Virus record (IMG/VR): IMGVR_UViG_2541047870_000002
DNA: 42,586 bases
Origin: a virus
Taxonomy: Duplodnaviria; Heunggongvirae; Uroviricota; Caudoviricetes
Direction: 5' to 3' (one strand)
Under the pieces are notes generated by a model. That model did no database searches, had not been told where the DNA came from, and was given only the letters and a program-made list of their open reading frames with translations. Made by a program: the position numbers and the translations under genes. Positions 6,081 to 14,693 of this stretch are shown here, in pieces; the stretch's first letter is position 1, and every line of letters begins with the position of its first letter.

Positions 6081-6124
6081 CGAGTAGCCAAGGAGTGCAA
6101 GGATTATCAAAAAAAGGAGGTTGT

Positions 6125-7015
6125 ATGGAAGACGCGCTTTACGCTTTTAATTACACACAGAACCGGGACAAGTTATTTGCTAACTTGATTAGCATCATTG
6201 ATGGAATCATTGCAGATGGAGTTGTCCGTGAAGAGGAGGTTCTTTACTTAGATACATGGTTACTTGAAGCAAAGCAGATTATCAATAATGGAGTTATAAA
6301 AAGTCTATCTGCTCGGGTGTCGGATATTCTTGCGGATGGAATAATCACATCAGAAGAACGTGATGACCTTAAAAATAGCCTTCTCCAAATACAGAGGGAA
6401 ATTCTTGATATCCCTGAAATTGATTTTTACTCCAAGGATGTAGATGTCCATTTACTTAATGGACTATGTAAAGGATTAATTGCTGATCGGAACTTAACTC
6501 AAGAAGAAATAAGATATCTTAATTGGTGGCTTGAGCAAAATGGAGCTTTGAAGAACAACTACCCAGGAAAAAAACTTTATGCACTTGTAAAGGAAATTCT
6601 TAAAGATGGTGTTATTACTGAAGATGAGAGTTTAACTCTACATAAGGCATTAGTAGACTTCACAGGATGTGACTTGGAAAGTGGGGTGGTGGATGGTTTG
6701 GCGACCAGGCTGCCTATTGATGTAGGGGCTTCGATAGAGTTAGAGGGTAAAACCTATTGTCTTACAGGCACTTTTGTTGCAGGAAAGAGAGCCGTAGTTG
6801 AAAATTTGATTAAAAATGCTGGTGGGAACATCAGTAGTGGAATTACTCAAAAGTTGGATTTTTTAGTAATTGGGACGCTTTCCTCCCGTGATTGGAAATT
6901 CTCTAGTCACGGAAGGAAGATCGAAAAGGCTATATCTTATAGGGATGATAATGGTGCAAAACTTAAAATTATTTCTGAAGAAATGCTTTTCGATGCATTA
7001 CCAAGTTCGCGATGA
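6125..7015 (+). CDS. TerB-like tandem repeat protein with C-terminal BRCT domain (immunity-region moron)
   Basis: Four repeats of the ADGxIxxEExxxL type in the N-terminal two thirds; C-terminal …GKTYCLTGTFVAGKRAVVENLIKNAGGNISSGITQKLDFLVIG… resembles the LigA-type BRCT fold; AGGAGG RBS before ATG at 6125 (ORF track starts at GTG 6095). Confidence 0.55.
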   Translation: MEDALYAFNYTQNRDKLFANLISIIDGIIADGVVREEEVLYLDTWLLEAKQIINNGVIKSLSARVSDILADGIITSEERDDLKNSLLQIQREILDIPEIDFYSKDVDVHLLNGLCKGLIADRNLTQEEIRYLNWWLEQNGALKNNYPGKKLYALVKEILKDGVITEDESLTLHKALVDFTGCDLESGVVDGLATRLPIDVGASIELEGKTYCLTGTFVAGKRAVVENLIKNAGGNISSGITQKLDFLVIGTLSSRDWKFSSHGRKIEKAISYRDDNGAKLKIISEEMLFDALPSSR

Positions 7016-7684
7016 CCAGAATACCCTACCTATAACATGAATTCTGGCTCGTCTATCTTCAAAGGTGAGTATTTCATCTGGGTACTCATCTTTGTTGAAG
7101 CTTCTAAGAATCAAGCCACCGTCAGGTAAGTTGATAAGTATTTTAACCCTTAGCAATACACCATCTCGTACGGCATAAAGATCGCCATCACGAATAGGAA
7201 CGGTTTGAGAAATATCAACGGCAACAAGATCTCCATTATTGAGAACCGGTAATAAACTGTTCCCCCATATTTGTACGATCTTGGCATTAGATGCACATAC
7301 GCCAGATTTTCTCAAATCTGCTCTTCTTAACGGAAACCAGTCAATAGCTGATTCAACTATTTCAGCCAGACATCCGTTACCTGCCGATAACTCGACATCT
7401 AAAACAGGAATGTTTACGAAAATATCGGGGTCTAATGCGGTGCTTTCTGCTTCTTTTACAACAAGATCAGGTATGGATGCGTTGTCTTCAATACCAAGTT
7501 GTAACCACTTTTGTGATACACCTAAAACTTTTGCAATTTCTTTAATTTTGCGCGGTTGTAGAGTTTCGCCATTCTCTATTTTGGCTACAGATTGTTGTGA
7601 AAGTCCAATTTTTTCAGCTAGTTGAGCTTGGCTCATGCCAGCTTTCTCTCTACCTATCTTTAATCGTTCTGCCAGTGTTTTCAC
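6998..7684 (-). CDS. cI: CI-like prophage repressor (N-terminal HTH_XRE, C-terminal S24/LexA-like self-cleaving peptidase)
   Basis: HTH …MSQAQLAEKIGLSQQSVAKIENG…; C-terminal peptidase-like domain; GTG start with GAGGG RBS; divergent from cro. Confidence 0.85.
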   Translation of the reverse strand: MKTLAERLKIGREKAGMSQAQLAEKIGLSQQSVAKIENGETLQPRKIKEIAKVLGVSQKWLQLGIEDNASIPDLVVKEAESTALDPDIFVNIPVLDVELSAGNGCLAEIVESAIDWFPLRRADLRKSGVCASNAKIVQIWGNSLLPVLNNGDLVAVDISQTVPIRDGDLYAVRDGVLLRVKILINLPDGGLILRSFNKDEYPDEILTFEDRRARIHVIGRVFWSSRTW

Positions 7685-7710
7685 AACATATCCCTCTCTT
7701 TTTTGATGAG

Positions 7711-7800
7711 GTTACAACTTTATGTTTTAGCTTTCCAACACCTAAAAGTTGTGGTAAAAGTTGTTAATGTTGTATTCTTGCAGCTCGTAACAACTTAACT
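7711..7800. promoter_or_regulatory. right operator cluster (OR-like) with divergent promoters for cI and cro
   Basis: Repeats ttacaactttatg, cacctaaaagttgtgg, aaagttgttaatgttg, cgtaacaactta between cI and cro starts. Confidence 0.55.
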
Positions 7801-7819
7801 ACCAAAAAAGGAGAAAGCT

Positions 7820-8068
7820 ATGACACCTGAGCAATTAGCCTTATCGGAGGCAATCGCTCTGGCTGGTGGTCAATCAGAATTGGCTCGGAAGCTCACAGCC
7901 AGCAGCGGTCATTTAGTAAAGCAACAACATGTCTGGAACTGGTTGAACAGAGAAAAGCGTCCCCCTGCAAAGCTCTCGATATTCATTGAAAAGACCACTG
8001 GCATATCAAAAGAAAAATTACGTCCAGATATTTTTCAAAAGATTAAAGATTCATCAGATGAAAAGTAA
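7820..8068 (+). CDS. cro: Cro-like HTH regulator
   Basis: 82-aa ORF divergent from cI, AAGGAG RBS, small basic HTH protein. Confidence 0.65.
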   Translation: MTPEQLALSEAIALAGGQSELARKLTASSGHLVKQQHVWNWLNREKRPPAKLSIFIEKTTGISKEKLRPDIFQKIKDSSDEK

Positions 8069-8090
8069 CCACAGTTTTAAGGAGATAGCC

Positions 8091-8648
8091 GTGGGTAAGC
8101 ATCACTGGAAAATAGAAAAACAGCCTGAGTGGTACGTGAAAGCTGTCAGAAAAACTATCGCGGCGTTGCCGGGGGGTTACGCTGAAGCCGCTGACTGGCT
8201 GGATGTAACAGAGAACGCTTTATTCAACCGCCTTCGTGCAGATGGCGATCAGATTTTCCCGCTGGGATGGGCAATGGTTTTACAGCGTGCTGGTGGCACT
8301 CACTTCATTGCTGATGCTGTGGCGCAGTCTGCAAATGGCGTCTTTGTGTCTCTTCCTGACGTCGAGGATGTGGACAACGCCGATATTAACCAGCGTCTGC
8401 TGGAAGTCATTGAACAGATCGGCAGTTATTCAAAACAGATTCGTTCAGCAATCGAAGACGGTGTAGTGGAACCGCATGAGAAGACAGCAATTAACGACGA
8501 GCTGTATCTCTCAATTTCGAAGCTGCAGGAACATGCAGCACTTGTCTACAAAATTTTTTGCATTTCAGAAAGTAATGACGCCCGCGAGTGTGCAGCTCCG
8601 GGCGTCGTGGCGTCGATTGCTTCTGGTTGTGGAGAAACTAACGCATGA
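8091..8648 (+). CDS. CII-position regulatory protein (YmfL-like), function uncertain
   Basis: GTG start with AAGGAG RBS just after cro (ORF track 7986..8648); position equivalent to cII. Confidence 0.4.
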
Positions 8649-8983
8649 ACAGTTTAACAACACACTACCGTCGCTCGCAACTGATTGCGCTTCCTTTACC
8701 GGGTGGAAAAGCGAAGGTGGAGTATTGCTATGCAGTGAATGTACCAGGTGACAGGGAAATTGTAACCCACAGCTTTGCAGAGTGGGCTGTGGGTGATTTC
8801 AACCGGCAGAAGGAGACAGTCCTTTGCGACAAGTTAACCGCTGGTTCAAAGATCACTACGGAGTGCCCGTCAGAGTCATTCGTTGGGAACCGGAAACACA
8901 ACGGGTTATCTACCTTCGCGAAGGTTATGAGCATGAATGCTTCAGTCCGCTCGAACAGTTTCGTCGTAAATTCAGGGAAATAG
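8645..8983 (+). CDS. hypothetical protein (YmfM-like size and position)
   Basis: 112-aa ORF with ATGA start-stop overlap with upstream gene; an alternative small ORF with strong RBS exists in another frame at about 8824..9003. Confidence 0.35.
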
Positions 8984-8992
8984 AGGTCGGTC

Positions 8993-9934
8993 ATGAGCAC
9001 TAAATTAACCGGCTATGTATGGGATGGTTGCGCTGCATCAGGCATGAAGTTATCCAGCGTGGCAATTATGGCCCGCCTGGCTGATTTCAGTAATGACGAA
9101 GGTGTGTGCTGGCCATCAATTGAAACCATTGCCCGTCAGATTGGCGCGGGGATGAGTACCGTCAGAACGGCTATCGCACGGCTGGAAGCAGAAGGCTGGT
9201 TAACGCGTAAGGCGCGTCGCCAGGGTAACCGTAATGCGTCGAATGTTTATCAGCTTAACGTTGCGAAGCTTCAGGCAGCGGCATTTTCTCAACTGTCAGA
9301 TTCTGACCCGTCAAAATCTGACGCATCAAAATCTGACCCGTCAAAATTTGATGCGTCGAAATCTGGCAAAAAAGCGGGTTTTCACCCGTCAGAATCTGGC
9401 GGGGATCCGTCAGTAAAATCAAAACATGATCCGTCAGATAAAAAATCTTCTCGTCCGGACGCTTCGCAACCGGACACGCAGACGGATGGACAGGATTTTT
9501 TAACTCGCCATCCTGATGCGGTTGTATTCAGCCCTAAAAAGCGCCAGTGGGGGACGCAGGATGATTTGACCTGCGCACAGTGGCTTTGGAAAAAAATCAT
9601 CGCCCTGTACGAGCAGGCCGCCGAATGTGACGGCGAGGTGGTTCGTCCCAAAGAACCTAACTGGACAGCCTGGGCAAACGAAATTCGCCTGATGTGTGTG
9701 CAGGATGGTCGTACTCACAAACAAATCTGCGAGATGTACAGCCGCGTCAGCCGCGATCCGTTCTGGTGCCGTAACGTGCTCAGCCCGTCGAAGCTGCGGG
9801 AAAAATGGGATGAGCTTTCCCTGCGCTTATCGCCGTCCGTAAGCACGTACACCGAAAAACGCGAAGACCCGTACTTCAAATCCAGTTACGACAACGTGGA
9901 CTACAGCCAGATCCCGGCAGGATTCAGGGGGTGA
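8993..9934 (+). CDS. replication initiation protein (O-like; N-terminal winged-helix domain, low-complexity linker, C-terminal DnaT-like domain)
   Basis: N-terminal HTH-like segment; Ser/Asp/Lys-rich linker encoded by tandem DNA repeats; position after cro/cII. Confidence 0.65.
   Translation: MSTKLTGYVWDGCAASGMKLSSVAIMARLADFSNDEGVCWPSIETIARQIGAGMSTVRTAIARLEAEGWLTRKARRQGNRNASNVYQLNVAKLQAAAFSQLSDSDPSKSDASKSDPSKFDASKSGKKAGFHPSESGGDPSVKSKHDPSDKKSSRPDASQPDTQTDGQDFLTRHPDAVVFSPKKRQWGTQDDLTCAQWLWKKIIALYEQAAECDGEVVRPKEPNWTAWANEIRLMCVQDGRTHKQICEMYSRVSRDPFWCRNVLSPSKLREKWDELSLRLSPSVSTYTEKREDPYFKSSYDNVDYSQIPAGFRG
9296..9445 (+). repeat. iteron-like tandem repeats (about 15-bp period, core TCA(A/G)AATCTG) followed by A-rich tract: putative replication origin inside the O-like gene
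   Basis: Five contiguous 15-bp units at 9296-9370 plus three further CCGTCAG-type copies and aaaaaatc tract. Confidence 0.5.
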
Positions 9935-9936
9935 TC

Positions 9937-10425
9937 ATGAGTCTTTTGAATGAAGTTCAGAAATACATTGAAGCCCATCCGGGGTGTACTTCCGGAGACA
10001 TTGCGGATGCTTTTGCAGGTTACTCACGGCAGCGCGTTCTGCAGTCAGCAAGCAAGTTACGTCAGAGTGGTCGTGTGGCTCACCGTTGTGAAGGGGATAC
10101 ACGCAGACATTTCCCGCGCCTGACTGAGAGAGCGCAGGAGGCGGAACCGCAACCAGTTCGTGAAACCAGACCTGTGCGCAATTTCTATGTCGGCACTAAC
10201 GACCCGCGGGAGATTTTGTGCCTGACCCGCCAGGCTGAAGAACTGGAGTCCAGGGGCTTATACCGTCGTGCTGCAACGGTGTGGATGGCGGCATTCCGTG
10301 AAAGCCACTCCCAGCCAGAACGAAACAATTTTCTGGCGCGTCGTGAGCGGTGCTTACGGAAAAGCAGCAAGCGCGCTGCATCGGGTGAAGAGTGGTATCT
10401 GTCAGGGAATTACGTGGGGGCTTAA
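9937..10425 (+). CDS. PerC-family-like transcriptional regulator
   Basis: Motif AEELESRGLYRRAATVWMAAF resembles the PerC signature; start at ATG with AGGGGG RBS. Confidence 0.4.
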   Translation: MSLLNEVQKYIEAHPGCTSGDIADAFAGYSRQRVLQSASKLRQSGRVAHRCEGDTRRHFPRLTERAQEAEPQPVRETRPVRNFYVGTNDPREILCLTRQAEELESRGLYRRAATVWMAAFRESHSQPERNNFLARRERCLRKSSKRAASGEEWYLSGNYVGA

Positions 10426-10751
10426 TGACGACGTTAACTCAATGCCAGCAGCAGGTGCTGGATATGCTGATTTCTTATCAGAAAGAACGTGGCTTCCCGC
10501 CAACCAATCAGGAGGTGGCAACCATGCTGGGATACCGTTCGGTGAATGCAGCGGTGGAGCATCTTCGTGCGCTGGAGAAAAAAGGCGTCATCACGATAAA
10601 GCGTGGCGTGGCCCGGGGGATAACGCTTCATACCGCGGTGAAGGACGACGACAGCGAGGCGGTCGGGATTATCCGCTCACTGCTTGCCGGTGAGGAAAAC
10701 GCCAGGCTGCGTGCAGCCCACTGGTTACATGAGAGGGGCCTGAAAGTATGA
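10425..10751 (+). CDS. LexA N-terminal DNA-binding-domain protein (no peptidase domain)
   Basis: MTTLTQCQQQVLDMLISYQKERGFPPTNQEVATMLGYRSVNAAVEHLRALEKKGVI closely parallels the LexA winged-helix domain. Confidence 0.6.
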   Translation: MTTLTQCQQQVLDMLISYQKERGFPPTNQEVATMLGYRSVNAAVEHLRALEKKGVITIKRGVARGITLHTAVKDDDSEAVGIIRSLLAGEENARLRAAHWLHERGLKV

Positions 10752-13361: not shown

Positions 13362-14693
13362 TTACTGGATGAGTGACATTTGATTAATATATTTTATCAA
13401 TAACTCTCTGGGTGTAGTACTCCAAAAATTTATGTGTTCATAATCAGTATAAACATTTGTGAATTTTTTAAGTTCTTCATCACTTTTAGGGGCAAATCGC
13501 TCATTAAGAGTAATACTGTCTTTAATTATTCCGAAGAATACAATGGATATTTCAGGGATTTGCGATCTTCTCTCATAAGAATAAGGTATTTCTTTTATGT
13601 TAAGCAGGTCTGCTAAATAAGATATAGATTCAGCGGTAATTTCTTGTTTTAGTTTTTCCTTGTTACCAAAGCAATGTATGAAGGCAGCTACGACAAAGAT
13701 CATATTTATTAAAGGATCACTGCTTTTGTTCTCATCGTCGTTTAACAGTTGAAAAATGTTAAGATTGCGTGAAAATGTTTGTGTTTCACGTAATGATAAG
13801 TTGGTTCGTTGAATTAAATCACGGATAAAGCAACCTGATAATCTATTGATTTTATTCAATAATCTTGTTTTTTCTACAAGGTAATCCCAATATATAACAG
13901 AGGCTTTACATACGTTGTGACCATTTATCAAACATGTATCTGGAAGCGTGATGGTATATTTTATAAACTTGTCAAGATACTTTTGTGAGTTAATGCTATA
14001 ACCATAAATATGATTTATAGATGCTTTTAATTGTTCTGTGTTTGTAACTAAAATAAAAAAGACATTATTGATGTCAAAAATGTGTTTTATTGTTTCAATG
14101 ACATTTGTTGAAAAACTCGGCTTACATCGGTCTAATTCATCAATTATAATTACGATTTTTTGATTTTTTGATATGCTTTCGATGCAGGATTTAAGTGAAT
14201 TTATGTTTTTCTCTGAGTCCATATGGTCTTCAAGCAAATTTTCAATAGTCCCATCTATTGCTGCATTGCTTGCTTTCTTCATCGCATCTTGGAATTCTTC
14301 GGCAACTTCACTAGCCTCCTGTCGTAAAAACCAACCTGCACCAGCTTTTAGTACCGTTTTTAAACCAAAGCGAATTGCAGGAAGAGATCGCTTAATGAAG
14401 TGTTGTTTTTCTTCCTCAGGCAAAATGCTGGCAATTGCAGAGGTTATGAGAAGTAATGGAGATTCTGCATGATCCCCTTTAAAGGCATCAATATAAACAA
14501 CTTTAGATTCAGTTTCTTGCTCAATAATGAGATTTTTCAGTTTGATACTAAATTCTGTTTTCCCTGTTCCCCATGCGCCGTCTATTACCAGTGGTGAAAT
14601 GTCTGCCTCTGGTTTTAGCAACTTGATGATATTTTCAGCGATGTTTCTTCGTTGGAACTCGTCACGTTCAGTGAAAGATAGTGTATCTAACAT
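13362..14693 (-). CDS. KAP-family P-loop NTPase (moron between Q and late promoter)
   Basis: Walker A LVIDGAWGTGKT and Walker B IIIDELDRC (the DELDR/DDLDR form typical of KAP NTPases); very AT-rich; reverse orientation. Confidence 0.65.
   Translation of the reverse strand: MLDTLSFTERDEFQRRNIAENIIKLLKPEADISPLVIDGAWGTGKTEFSIKLKNLIIEQETESKVVYIDAFKGDHAESPLLLITSAIASILPEEEKQHFIKRSLPAIRFGLKTVLKAGAGWFLRQEASEVAEEFQDAMKKASNAAIDGTIENLLEDHMDSEKNINSLKSCIESISKNQKIVIIIDELDRCKPSFSTNVIETIKHIFDINNVFFILVTNTEQLKASINHIYGYSINSQKYLDKFIKYTITLPDTCLINGHNVCKASVIYWDYLVEKTRLLNKINRLSGCFIRDLIQRTNLSLRETQTFSRNLNIFQLLNDDENKSSDPLINMIFVVAAFIHCFGNKEKLKQEITAESISYLADLLNIKEIPYSYERRSQIPEISIVFFGIIKDSITLNERFAPKSDEELKKFTNVYTDYEHINFWSTTPRELLIKYINQMSLIQ

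Follow-up and report, generated by a model that had tools for sequence, protein, structure and literature searches.

The stretch of DNA analyzed here, hereafter the window, is a 42,586-nucleotide (nt) sequence from a virus of the Caudoviricetes (IMG/VR record IMGVR_UViG_2541047870_000002), and the element under study is an array of short palindromic repeats inside an early gene that encodes an O-type replication initiator of 313 amino acids (aa). Over its entire length this protein matches PHROG 391, annotated "replication initiation O-like" (6e-135), and it contains a winged-helix domain of the Pfam HTH_36 family (aa 23-70, E 4e-11), which is presumed to be the part that reads the repeats. 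In an AlphaFold2 model built on 26 homologs, the protein is laid out as a winged helix (aa 1-98), a disordered linker (aa 102-154, predicted local distance difference test score, pLDDT, <50), a helical domain (aa 166-278), and a disordered tail. A Foldseek search of this model against the PDB matched the N-terminal domain to MarR/ArsR-type winged helices only and returned no match for the C-terminal domain; likewise, a sequence search of the PDB found no relative of the initiator beyond weak MarR matches, and none of the Pfam and NCBIfam models matches the O C-terminal domain. The disordered linker is the part encoded by the repeats and by the A-rich tract that follows them, in agreement with an earlier sequence-only reading of this DNA, which had proposed that the repeats encode a low-complexity linker and had called the segment a putative origin.

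The array consists of five 13-base-pair (bp) near-palindromes followed by a sixth, all six lying within 106 bp (9295-9400; Table 1). The sequence-only reading had described five contiguous 15-bp repeats, which do lie where it placed them, the full set of iterons being five plus one; the core that it gave, TCA(A/G)AATCTGAC, is exact in units 2 and 3 and carries one or two mismatches in the remaining units. Tandem Repeats Finder reported a period of 15 with 4.3 copies at 9302-9365 (score 86) and also read the same segment with a period of 30, at a higher score (100), and a repeat search placed in-register copies at 9296, 9311, 9326, 9341, and 9374/9389. When up to two mismatches were allowed, the motif GTCARAATCTGAC gave 10 strand-matches in the 42.6-kb window, compared with 1.8 expected, a count reached in none of 100 shuffles. 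Nine of the 10 fall on the six sites and the sole other match, with two mismatches, is at 2374, there being no second cluster of the motif in the window. A logo built from 92 sites in 12 non-redundant genes reads T82 C100 A92 R A99 A78 T95 C80 T91 G96 A76 C78, and the sixth iteron is retained in Pantoea, Klebsiella, Citrobacter, and phiNP alleles. At the protein level, the repeats specify SDSDPSKSDASKSDPSKFDASKS (aa 101-125 of the initiator), and the six sites together specify aa 101-136. Each site is a dyad, as are the 18-bp inverted-repeat iterons of lambda, which bind O dimers (PMC6022878). Sites of 13 bp at a 15-bp pitch leave 2 bp between neighbors, in effect alternating half-sites every 7-8 bp; given this pitch, the occupancy and geometry of the array must differ from that of the lambda O-some, and possible binding modes are occupancy of alternate sites with a 30-bp period or a continuous filament.

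Downstream of the array lies an A/T-rich tract, a candidate DNA-unwinding element. It contains two direct repeats, GATCCGTCAG(T/A)(A/T)AAA, at 9404-9420 and 9428-9447, 24 bp apart and each headed by one of the two GATC sites (9404 and 9428). The segment 9412-9451, at 72% AT, is the least stable 40-mer of the initiator gene. An A-rich tract had been noted from the letters alone, and it is indeed present, although the origin that we predict extends further, to ~9475, so as to include an inverted repeat that we call the right arm. The same reading had added three copies of CCGTCAG to the array. These are found at 9386, 9407, and 9431, where the first is the flank of iteron 6 and the later two are parts of the direct repeats, that is, of a shared GATC-bearing A/T element rather than of allele-specific iterons. 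Since the window as a whole has an excess of CCGTCAG (28 occurrences on both strands, compared with 4.1 expected from dinucleotide shuffles), the heptamer is weak as evidence of an origin, and we rejected it as a stand-alone iteron signal. It also forms a local cluster at 8867-9437, and its excess across the window may reflect a codon-context effect.

Table 1. Features of the initiator gene, the predicted origin, and the neighboring early genes
Feature	Position	Strand	Remarks
cI-like repressor	6998-7684	-	
YdaS/cro-like protein	7820-8068	+	
CII (CP76)-like protein	7986-8648	+	
DUF4222 protein	8645-8983	+	
O-type replication initiator gene, 313 aa	8993-9934	+	open reading frame (ORF); HTH_36, PHROG 391, lambda O match
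N-terminal winged-helix DNA-binding domain, aa 1-98	8993-9286	+	AlphaFold2 helices/strands at aa 3-98
Iteron array, five 13-bp near-palindromes GTCA(A/G)AATCTGAC	9295-9367	.	pitch exactly 15 bp (9295, 9310, 9325, 9340, 9355)
Site 1	9295-9307		GTCAGATTCTGAC
Site 2	9310-9322		GTCAAAATCTGAC
Site 3	9325-9337		ATCAAAATCTGAC
Site 4	9340-9352		GTCAAAATTTGAT
Site 5	9355-9367		GTCGAAATCTGGC
Site 6 (sixth iteron)	9388-9400	.	GTCAGAATCTGGC; 33 bp beyond iteron 5, adjoins A/T-rich tract
Candidate DNA-unwinding element, A/T-rich	9404-9451	.	two direct repeats, each with a Dam site
Right arm GTCCGGACGCTTCGCAACCGGAC	9453-9475	.	inverted repeat GTCCGG..CCGGAC
Lambda-O-like C-terminal domain, aa 167-277	9491-9823	+	pLDDT ~87-96 (AlphaFold2)
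C-terminal tail SQIPAGFRG, aa 305-313	9905-9931	+	likeness to host DnaT C-terminal motif
PerC/YfdN-family regulator	9931-10425	+	Pfam PerC 7.5e-9; PHROG 1324 "transcriptional activator"; RefSeq yfdN
119-aa protein, LexA DNA-binding domain only	10392-10751	+	Pfam 3.7e-19, no protease domain
RusA	10748 onward	+	N-terminal sequence and annotation of relatives
Dam-type methylase genes in relatives	L001 3567-4220, L002 2978-3631, L127 3675-4499, L128 3370-4251		

We compared the initiator with lambda O, whose gene contains the best-known origin of this kind. In ori-lambda, a 39-bp region of high AT content is accompanied by four iterons, inverted repeats of 18 bp that each bind one O dimer; the origin lies in the middle of gene O, between the parts encoding the N-terminal DNA-binding domain and the C-terminal P-binding domain, which a flexible linker joins (PMC6022878, PMC7466680). 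In a tblastn search of phage records, aa 167-277 of the window protein were 39% identical to the C-terminal domain of O from lambda (aa 172-270), 21, 933W, and others (E 4e-17), and direct BLASTP against lambda O (E 1e-25) aligned aa 70-277 with O aa 78-270. In this alignment, the repeat-encoded residues stand opposite O residues ~103-140, whose codons lie in the four lambda iterons and the AT-rich region, indicating that the window repeats are at a position homologous, not merely similar, to ori-lambda. The parallel with ori-lambda drawn by the sequence-only reading can thus be strengthened to common ancestry, which the alignments indicate both for the C-terminal domain of the initiator and for the position of the element. 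The two share an origin in the linker-coding middle of the initiator gene, the order from dyad iterons through an A/T-rich region to a conserved C-terminal domain, and a gene that follows cro-like and cII-like genes in the rightward early operon. They differ in the N-terminal domain (Pfam HTH_36 in the window and Phage_rep_O in lambda, both winged helices), in the iterons (13 bp at a 15-bp pitch, compared with 18-19 bp at ~20-24 bp), in the number of sites (five plus one, compared with four), and in the absence of a P gene from the window, whose initiator has a DnaT-like IPxGFRG tail whereas lambda O ends in ..NTDWIY... In addition, lambda carries to the right of its AT-rich region a segment, CGTCAGAGAATTCTGGCGAATCC (L126 1163-1186), that resembles site 6 of the window with its flank, CCGTCAGAATCTGGCGGGGATCC (9386-9408).

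The C-terminal domain is carried by 41 loci from different species, and further scans of viral contigs enlarged the set to 192 unique genes in 27 N-terminal clusters. Its fusion partners in this collection include at least seven N-terminal domains, unrelated or diverged, and each class has its own array of four to nine repeats at gene nt ~250-500, most of them palindromic, with a spacing of 15, 21-24, 22, or 23 bp. The window type repeats GTCAAAATCTGAC every 15 bp; L016 and L233 carry GTTCAGA(A/T)TCTGAAC at 15 bp, L014 and L235 TTGACCCGTCAA at 15 and 30 bp, SfV orf39 and L022 GGTGCAGGAGATTCACC at 21-24 bp, L031 GGACAATTTGTCC at 23 bp, L024 and L037 TTCCGCAGAATCGCGGAAC at 22 bp, and L015 a motif of its own at 23 bp. 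A motif-by-gene matrix over 13 genes is block-diagonal, and within the HTH_36 group the motif changes along with the recognition helix (STVRTAI, STVITAI, STVKAAI). The GATC-bearing A/T-rich element is common to classes with different iterons, and the right arm is kept across classes whose iterons are unrelated; the least stable 40-mer of the gene directly follows the repeats in 15 of 17 other classes and in lambda O as well; and GATC sites gather in this zone after the iterons in most classes, their density among 25 class representatives being 18.2 per kb there, compared with 3.9 per kb elsewhere. Many relatives, including SfII, SfV, phiNP, and a Klebsiella phage, carry a Dam-type methylase gene one to two genes downstream of the initiator, while the window, like SfIV, is without it. 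Control of the origin through methylation or SeqA is possible.

As a further test of a function at the DNA level, we compared codon use among 12 genes of the window class that share <92% protein identity (from E. coli, Salmonella, Klebsiella, Citrobacter, and Pantoea), taking the same-codon fraction as the share of identical residues whose codons are identical too. This fraction is 0.52 in the N-terminal domain (aa 1-95) and 0.55 in the C-terminal domain (aa 167-280), and it rises to 0.86 in the iteron array (aa 101-125), 0.91 in aa 126-137, which contain the sixth iteron, 0.93 in the A-rich tract (aa 138-152), and 0.81 in aa 153-166, which correspond to the right arm. Synonymous change is thus suppressed across nt ~9284-9487, the non-repetitive A-rich tract included, whereas amino-acid identity is only 0.49-0.66 in this middle zone versus 0.71-0.83 in the domains. 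Column by column, the median same-codon value is 1.00 for aa 98-165 versus 0.52 elsewhere, a large effect whose p value (Mann-Whitney, 2e-19) overstates the evidence, the sequences being related and non-independent and the alignment of the repeats ambiguous. Serine codons in the zone are mostly TCA (100) and TCT (77 of 211), whereas AGC dominates elsewhere, and the units of Pantoea alleles encode S, C, F, N, or E yet retain TCA-AAA-TCT-GAC.

The inheritance of the region points in the same direction. Citrobacter phage phiNP has the same N-terminal domain (86% identical), the five-plus-one iterons, and the A-rich tract, but this cassette is fused at ..ASQP.. to an unrelated Phg_2220_C domain; conversely, other alleles have the C-terminal domain of the window joined at ..S(R/C)PDASQPD.. 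to an N-terminal domain and repeats that are both foreign. The chimera and the converse mosaics together imply that the DNA-binding domain, the repeats, and the A/T tract move as one cassette, and the right arm is the recombination junction between this origin cassette and the C-domain cassette. Several other alleles have, in place of ..SCPDASQPD.., a lambda-type ..SENSGES.. version of that segment. A comparison of repeat number among related prophages, which the sequence-only reading had called for, gave five to nine sites among 114 loci of the E. coli-type cluster, one E. coli chromosome having eight array units in a 987-bp gene, and alleles with one or two units in Salmonella. The yfdO gene of the K-12-type CPS-53 prophage (L003 2502-3209) is a 5'-truncated pseudogene starting at gene position 234, which retains the iteron array and the C-terminal domain without the DNA-binding domain and is thus an orphan origin without its initiator. 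We rejected the start of yfdO as a natural domain boundary, as it is a deletion remnant annotated as a pseudogene.

What we observe directly is the anatomy of the region, its homology to lambda O, the co-variation of repeats and DNA-binding domain, and purifying selection at the DNA level. Class-specific repeats, frozen synonymous codons, and cassette inheritance point to a function exerted by the DNA itself, and these same three lines support, by inference, the origin interpretation that the sequence-only reading had offered. We therefore propose, as the likely reading of these sequence data, that ~9295-9475 is the vegetative replication origin of a lambdoid prophage, located inside its own initiator gene, which gives a concrete origin of ~180 bp with separable parts: six iterons, a GATC-bearing A/T tract, and a right arm. 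On the model of the lambda O-some, the winged-helix domain at the N terminus would bind as dimers to the six 13-bp palindromic iterons, and the resulting nucleoprotein complex would stress the adjacent GATC-bearing A/T tract, which would melt. The lambda-O-like C-terminal domain and the IPxGFRG tail would then bring the host DnaB-DnaC complex to the melted DNA without a phage P protein, which is the weakest step of this model.

Several points weigh against the origin reading or parts of it. The A/T tract is modest, 9412-9451 ranking only in the top 5.7% of the window for low stability and having an AT content of 72% compared with 77.5% in lambda. Alleles with only one or two units are not rare (for instance P0032, of 288 aa, in 128 Salmonella contigs), and either these are defective or a long array is dispensable. 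With 2 bp between sites, neighboring dimers would not share a face of the helix, and a clash between them is possible. The codon comparison has the non-independence noted above, and helicase recruitment, as the weakest step, is suggested by a nine-residue motif and a correlation in gene neighborhood. Moreover, a 2025 survey states that experimental work exists on none of the lambdoid phages with O as their only replication protein (O-only phages) and that the way in which they replicate is not understood (PMC12315714). Our literature search found no origin described for the O-only module, the SfV genome paper lying outside that search, and the paper on the SfIV genome mentions a replication module without naming an origin (PMC3851460). 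The local GC-skew profile gave nothing usable.

An alternative is that the repeats are only slippage-prone coding repeats, which do nothing as DNA and merely build a linker that is flexible and of low complexity. The number of units in relatives does range from ~1 to 9, the encoded segment is predicted to be disordered, and lambda O proteins with in-frame deletions in the AT-rich region still complement, so that changes in linker length are tolerated (PMC6022878). Slippage, however, would not explain why the DNA core is kept in Pantoea units while the amino acids vary, why same-codon fractions reach 0.86-0.93 compared with ~0.53 in the domains, why every unit is a dyad, or why the non-repetitive A-rich tract is equally frozen, and it would leave unrelated DNA-binding domains with unrelated repeats in the same place; we thus regard it as extremely unlikely. 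The frozen synonymous sites could also reflect a constraint other than an origin, namely a recombination boundary, an overlapping reading frame, or mRNA structure. Mosaic junctions do occur in the zone, at ..PDASQPD.., but recent exchange would have raised amino-acid identity too, which is lowest there. Similarly, ORFs overlap the zone in other frames (9234-9416 on the plus strand and 9255-9422 on the minus strand), but they are the repeats read in those frames. For an mRNA structure, a hairpin formed by a single unit would have a 1-nt loop, and a terminator-like hairpin on the minus strand (9388-9375) was rejected, as it is not kept in Pantoea or Klebsiella alleles. A weak Rfam match to the palindromes (mir-5880 at 9294-9368, 30.7 bits, E 0.0026) belongs to a eukaryotic microRNA family and is far under the gathering score of 97, and we rejected it as an artefact of tandem palindromes. 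All these sources of constraint taken together appear very unlikely.

A further possibility is that the initiator binds the sites for regulation, whether as autorepression, a transcriptional roadblock, or copy control by handcuffing, while the origin lies elsewhere in the prophage. Plasmid iterons act in both initiation and control, and the tie of the array to initiation is one that we infer. Nonetheless, the array sits at a position homologous to ori-lambda, after it come the least stable part of the gene and then the conserved right arm, the window holds no second cluster of the motif, and a promoter scan found no sigma-70-like promoter in 7500-10600 that could be repressed. We consider a purely regulatory role improbable.

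The preferred reading, an origin within the initiator gene, can be set beside other known origins. The origins of the Stx phages 933W and P27 have six iterons compared with four in lambda, the extra iterons lengthening the linker of the initiator; binding is best at the iterons closest to the A/T tract, and in vitro the two closest to it are enough both to unwind the DNA and to let ori-lambda plasmids replicate (PMC7466680). As in the E. coli-type cluster of the window, with its five to nine sites, iteron number varies between close relatives, but the Stx origins have lambda-type iterons, a lambda-type N-terminal domain, and a P protein. Origins have also been proposed inside gene 18 of the Salmonella phages P22 and L, with four ~20-bp repeats and six imprecise 11-bp repeats, respectively (PMC8022706). 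There too, distantly related origin-binding proteins each have their own repeats in their own coding region, although the initiator is paired with a phage DnaB-type helicase (gene 12). Theta plasmids of the pSC101, RK2, and R6K type share with the window a winged-helix Rep protein and direct iterons next to an A/T-rich unwinding element (PMC4081077). They differ in that their iterons are usually intergenic, ~17-22 bp long, and spaced by about two turns of the helix, with DnaA boxes alongside; the iterons of the window lie in coding sequence, no DnaA box (up to one mismatch) was found in 9200-9600, the nearest being at 8369 and 8628, and the site would work like a theta plasmid iteron origin but is outside that family. 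The arrangement of the origin is itself a textbook one, known from lambda and P22, and in this respect the origin call is ordinary; less expected are its context without a helicase loader and the DnaT-type tail of the initiator.

The sequence-only reading had included the gene following the initiator in its proposed construct for autonomous replication. We rejected a role for this gene as a replication partner, as it encodes a PerC/YfdN-type regulator (Table 1), and the initiator gene would be enough for such a construct. Likewise, none of the early-region ORFs scanned belongs to the P, DnaC, or DnaB families. The window is thus not a lambda O-P module, its next gene being PerC/YfdN rather than a P-type loader; by analogy, the element would work like ori-lambda without being a member of that module, since P was looked for and is absent. 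With a single O homolog and no helicase or loader among the scanned early ORFs, it is instead an O-only lambdoid module, of the kind described in phage LLS and in 34 of 314 lambdoid phages of Enterobacteriales (Zheng et al. 2025, PMC12315714). An LLS relative, mEp460_4F5, is 97% identical to the module of the window over 77% of the query. That survey gives no origin and no mechanism of helicase recruitment, whereas iterons, synonymous constraint, and a DnaT-like tail are described here. After some Pantoea alleles, ORFs of 440-446 aa could have passed by size for DnaB helicases, but these were rejected because they contain a ParB helix-turn-helix domain. The module is also found in the Shigella serotype-converting phages SfII and SfIV. 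In SfIV, which its authors describe as an isolated serotype-converting phage (PMC3851460), the initiator gene is 98% identical to that of the window and is the only annotated replication gene among 54 genes, implying that this one gene together with host factors probably suffices for replication.

We then examined the C terminus of the initiator, which ends in ..VDYSQIPAGFRG, while E. coli DnaT ends in ..EPDSQIPPGFRG. SQIPAGFRG and SQIPPGFRG (E. coli DnaT aa 171-179) are identical at eight of nine residues, and other alleles match DnaT over ~17 residues, for example VNHISEPDTEIPPGFRG; a DnaT-like tail is also present in L021, L022, L034, and L128. IPxGFRG hardly varies among 107 representatives of DnaT clusters, where it is as conserved as the three-helix single-stranded DNA-binding domain and is flanked by a stretch of greater variability. 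Pfam and PDB sequence searches detected no homology to DnaT beyond the tail motif, and the initiator is not a member of the DnaT family (PF17948), since the Pfam model matches E. coli DnaT (3.7e-21) and none of the C-terminal halves of the window initiator and its relatives at E ≤10. The 192 unique genes with an O-type C-terminal domain have three types of tail, and we counted neighbors in those with enough downstream DNA. A ..WENTL or lambda-like ..DWI.. tail occurs in 11 genes from eight N-terminal clusters, all 11 of which have an adjacent P gene and none an adjacent DnaC/IstB-like gene; three of these P genes were confirmed by Pfam Phage_lambda_P, and phmmer, queried with lambda P and two of those proteins, identified all 11. 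The IPxGFRG tail occurs in 170 genes from 15 N-terminal clusters, of which none has an adjacent P gene and 10 have an adjacent DnaC/IstB-like gene. The phiNP protein also ends in IPxGFRG despite its unrelated C-terminal domain, which suggests that IPxGFRG is a portable short motif. The absence of a loader, together with a tail that is perfectly anti-correlated with an adjacent P gene, suggests a simple route by which the initiator could recruit the helicase of the host without an intermediary. According to the literature, it is not known how DnaT brings in DnaB/DnaC (PMC13377028, PMC11087952). We tentatively suggest, as a possibility short of even odds, that IPxGFRG is an element that recruits host DnaB-DnaC both at the phage origin and, in DnaT, at restarted forks, in which case the initiator would need no P.

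Beyond the origin, the early region has the layout given in Table 1. The 119-aa protein, which has a LexA DNA-binding domain and nothing else, is also conserved after the initiator gene in SfII, SfIV, and SfV-type phages. Two other ORFs may be accessory (moron) genes: one of 306 aa next to the cI-like repressor (6095-7015, plus strand, PHROG 3989) and one of 443 aa between the early and lysis regions (13362-14693, minus strand, PHROG 8614). Chi sites, GCTGGTGG, number 12 in the window compared with 1.35 expected, 11 of them on the plus strand (for example at 6818, 7862, 8289, 11049, 12186, 15031, 20464, and 26762). Chi richness has been described for phages without a Rec module (PMC12315714), and the window is Chi-rich as well.

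The module is widespread, with a match in 2,724 of 5,426 complete E. coli genomes, 1,576 of these matches being near full length. Should the tail act as we tentatively suggest, it would explain how O-only lambdoid phages replicate, which the 2025 survey describes as not understood (PMC12315714). The tail may also point to the DnaB/DnaC-recruiting element of DnaT itself, and IPxGFRG would then be a concrete candidate for the handover from DnaT to DnaB/DnaC.

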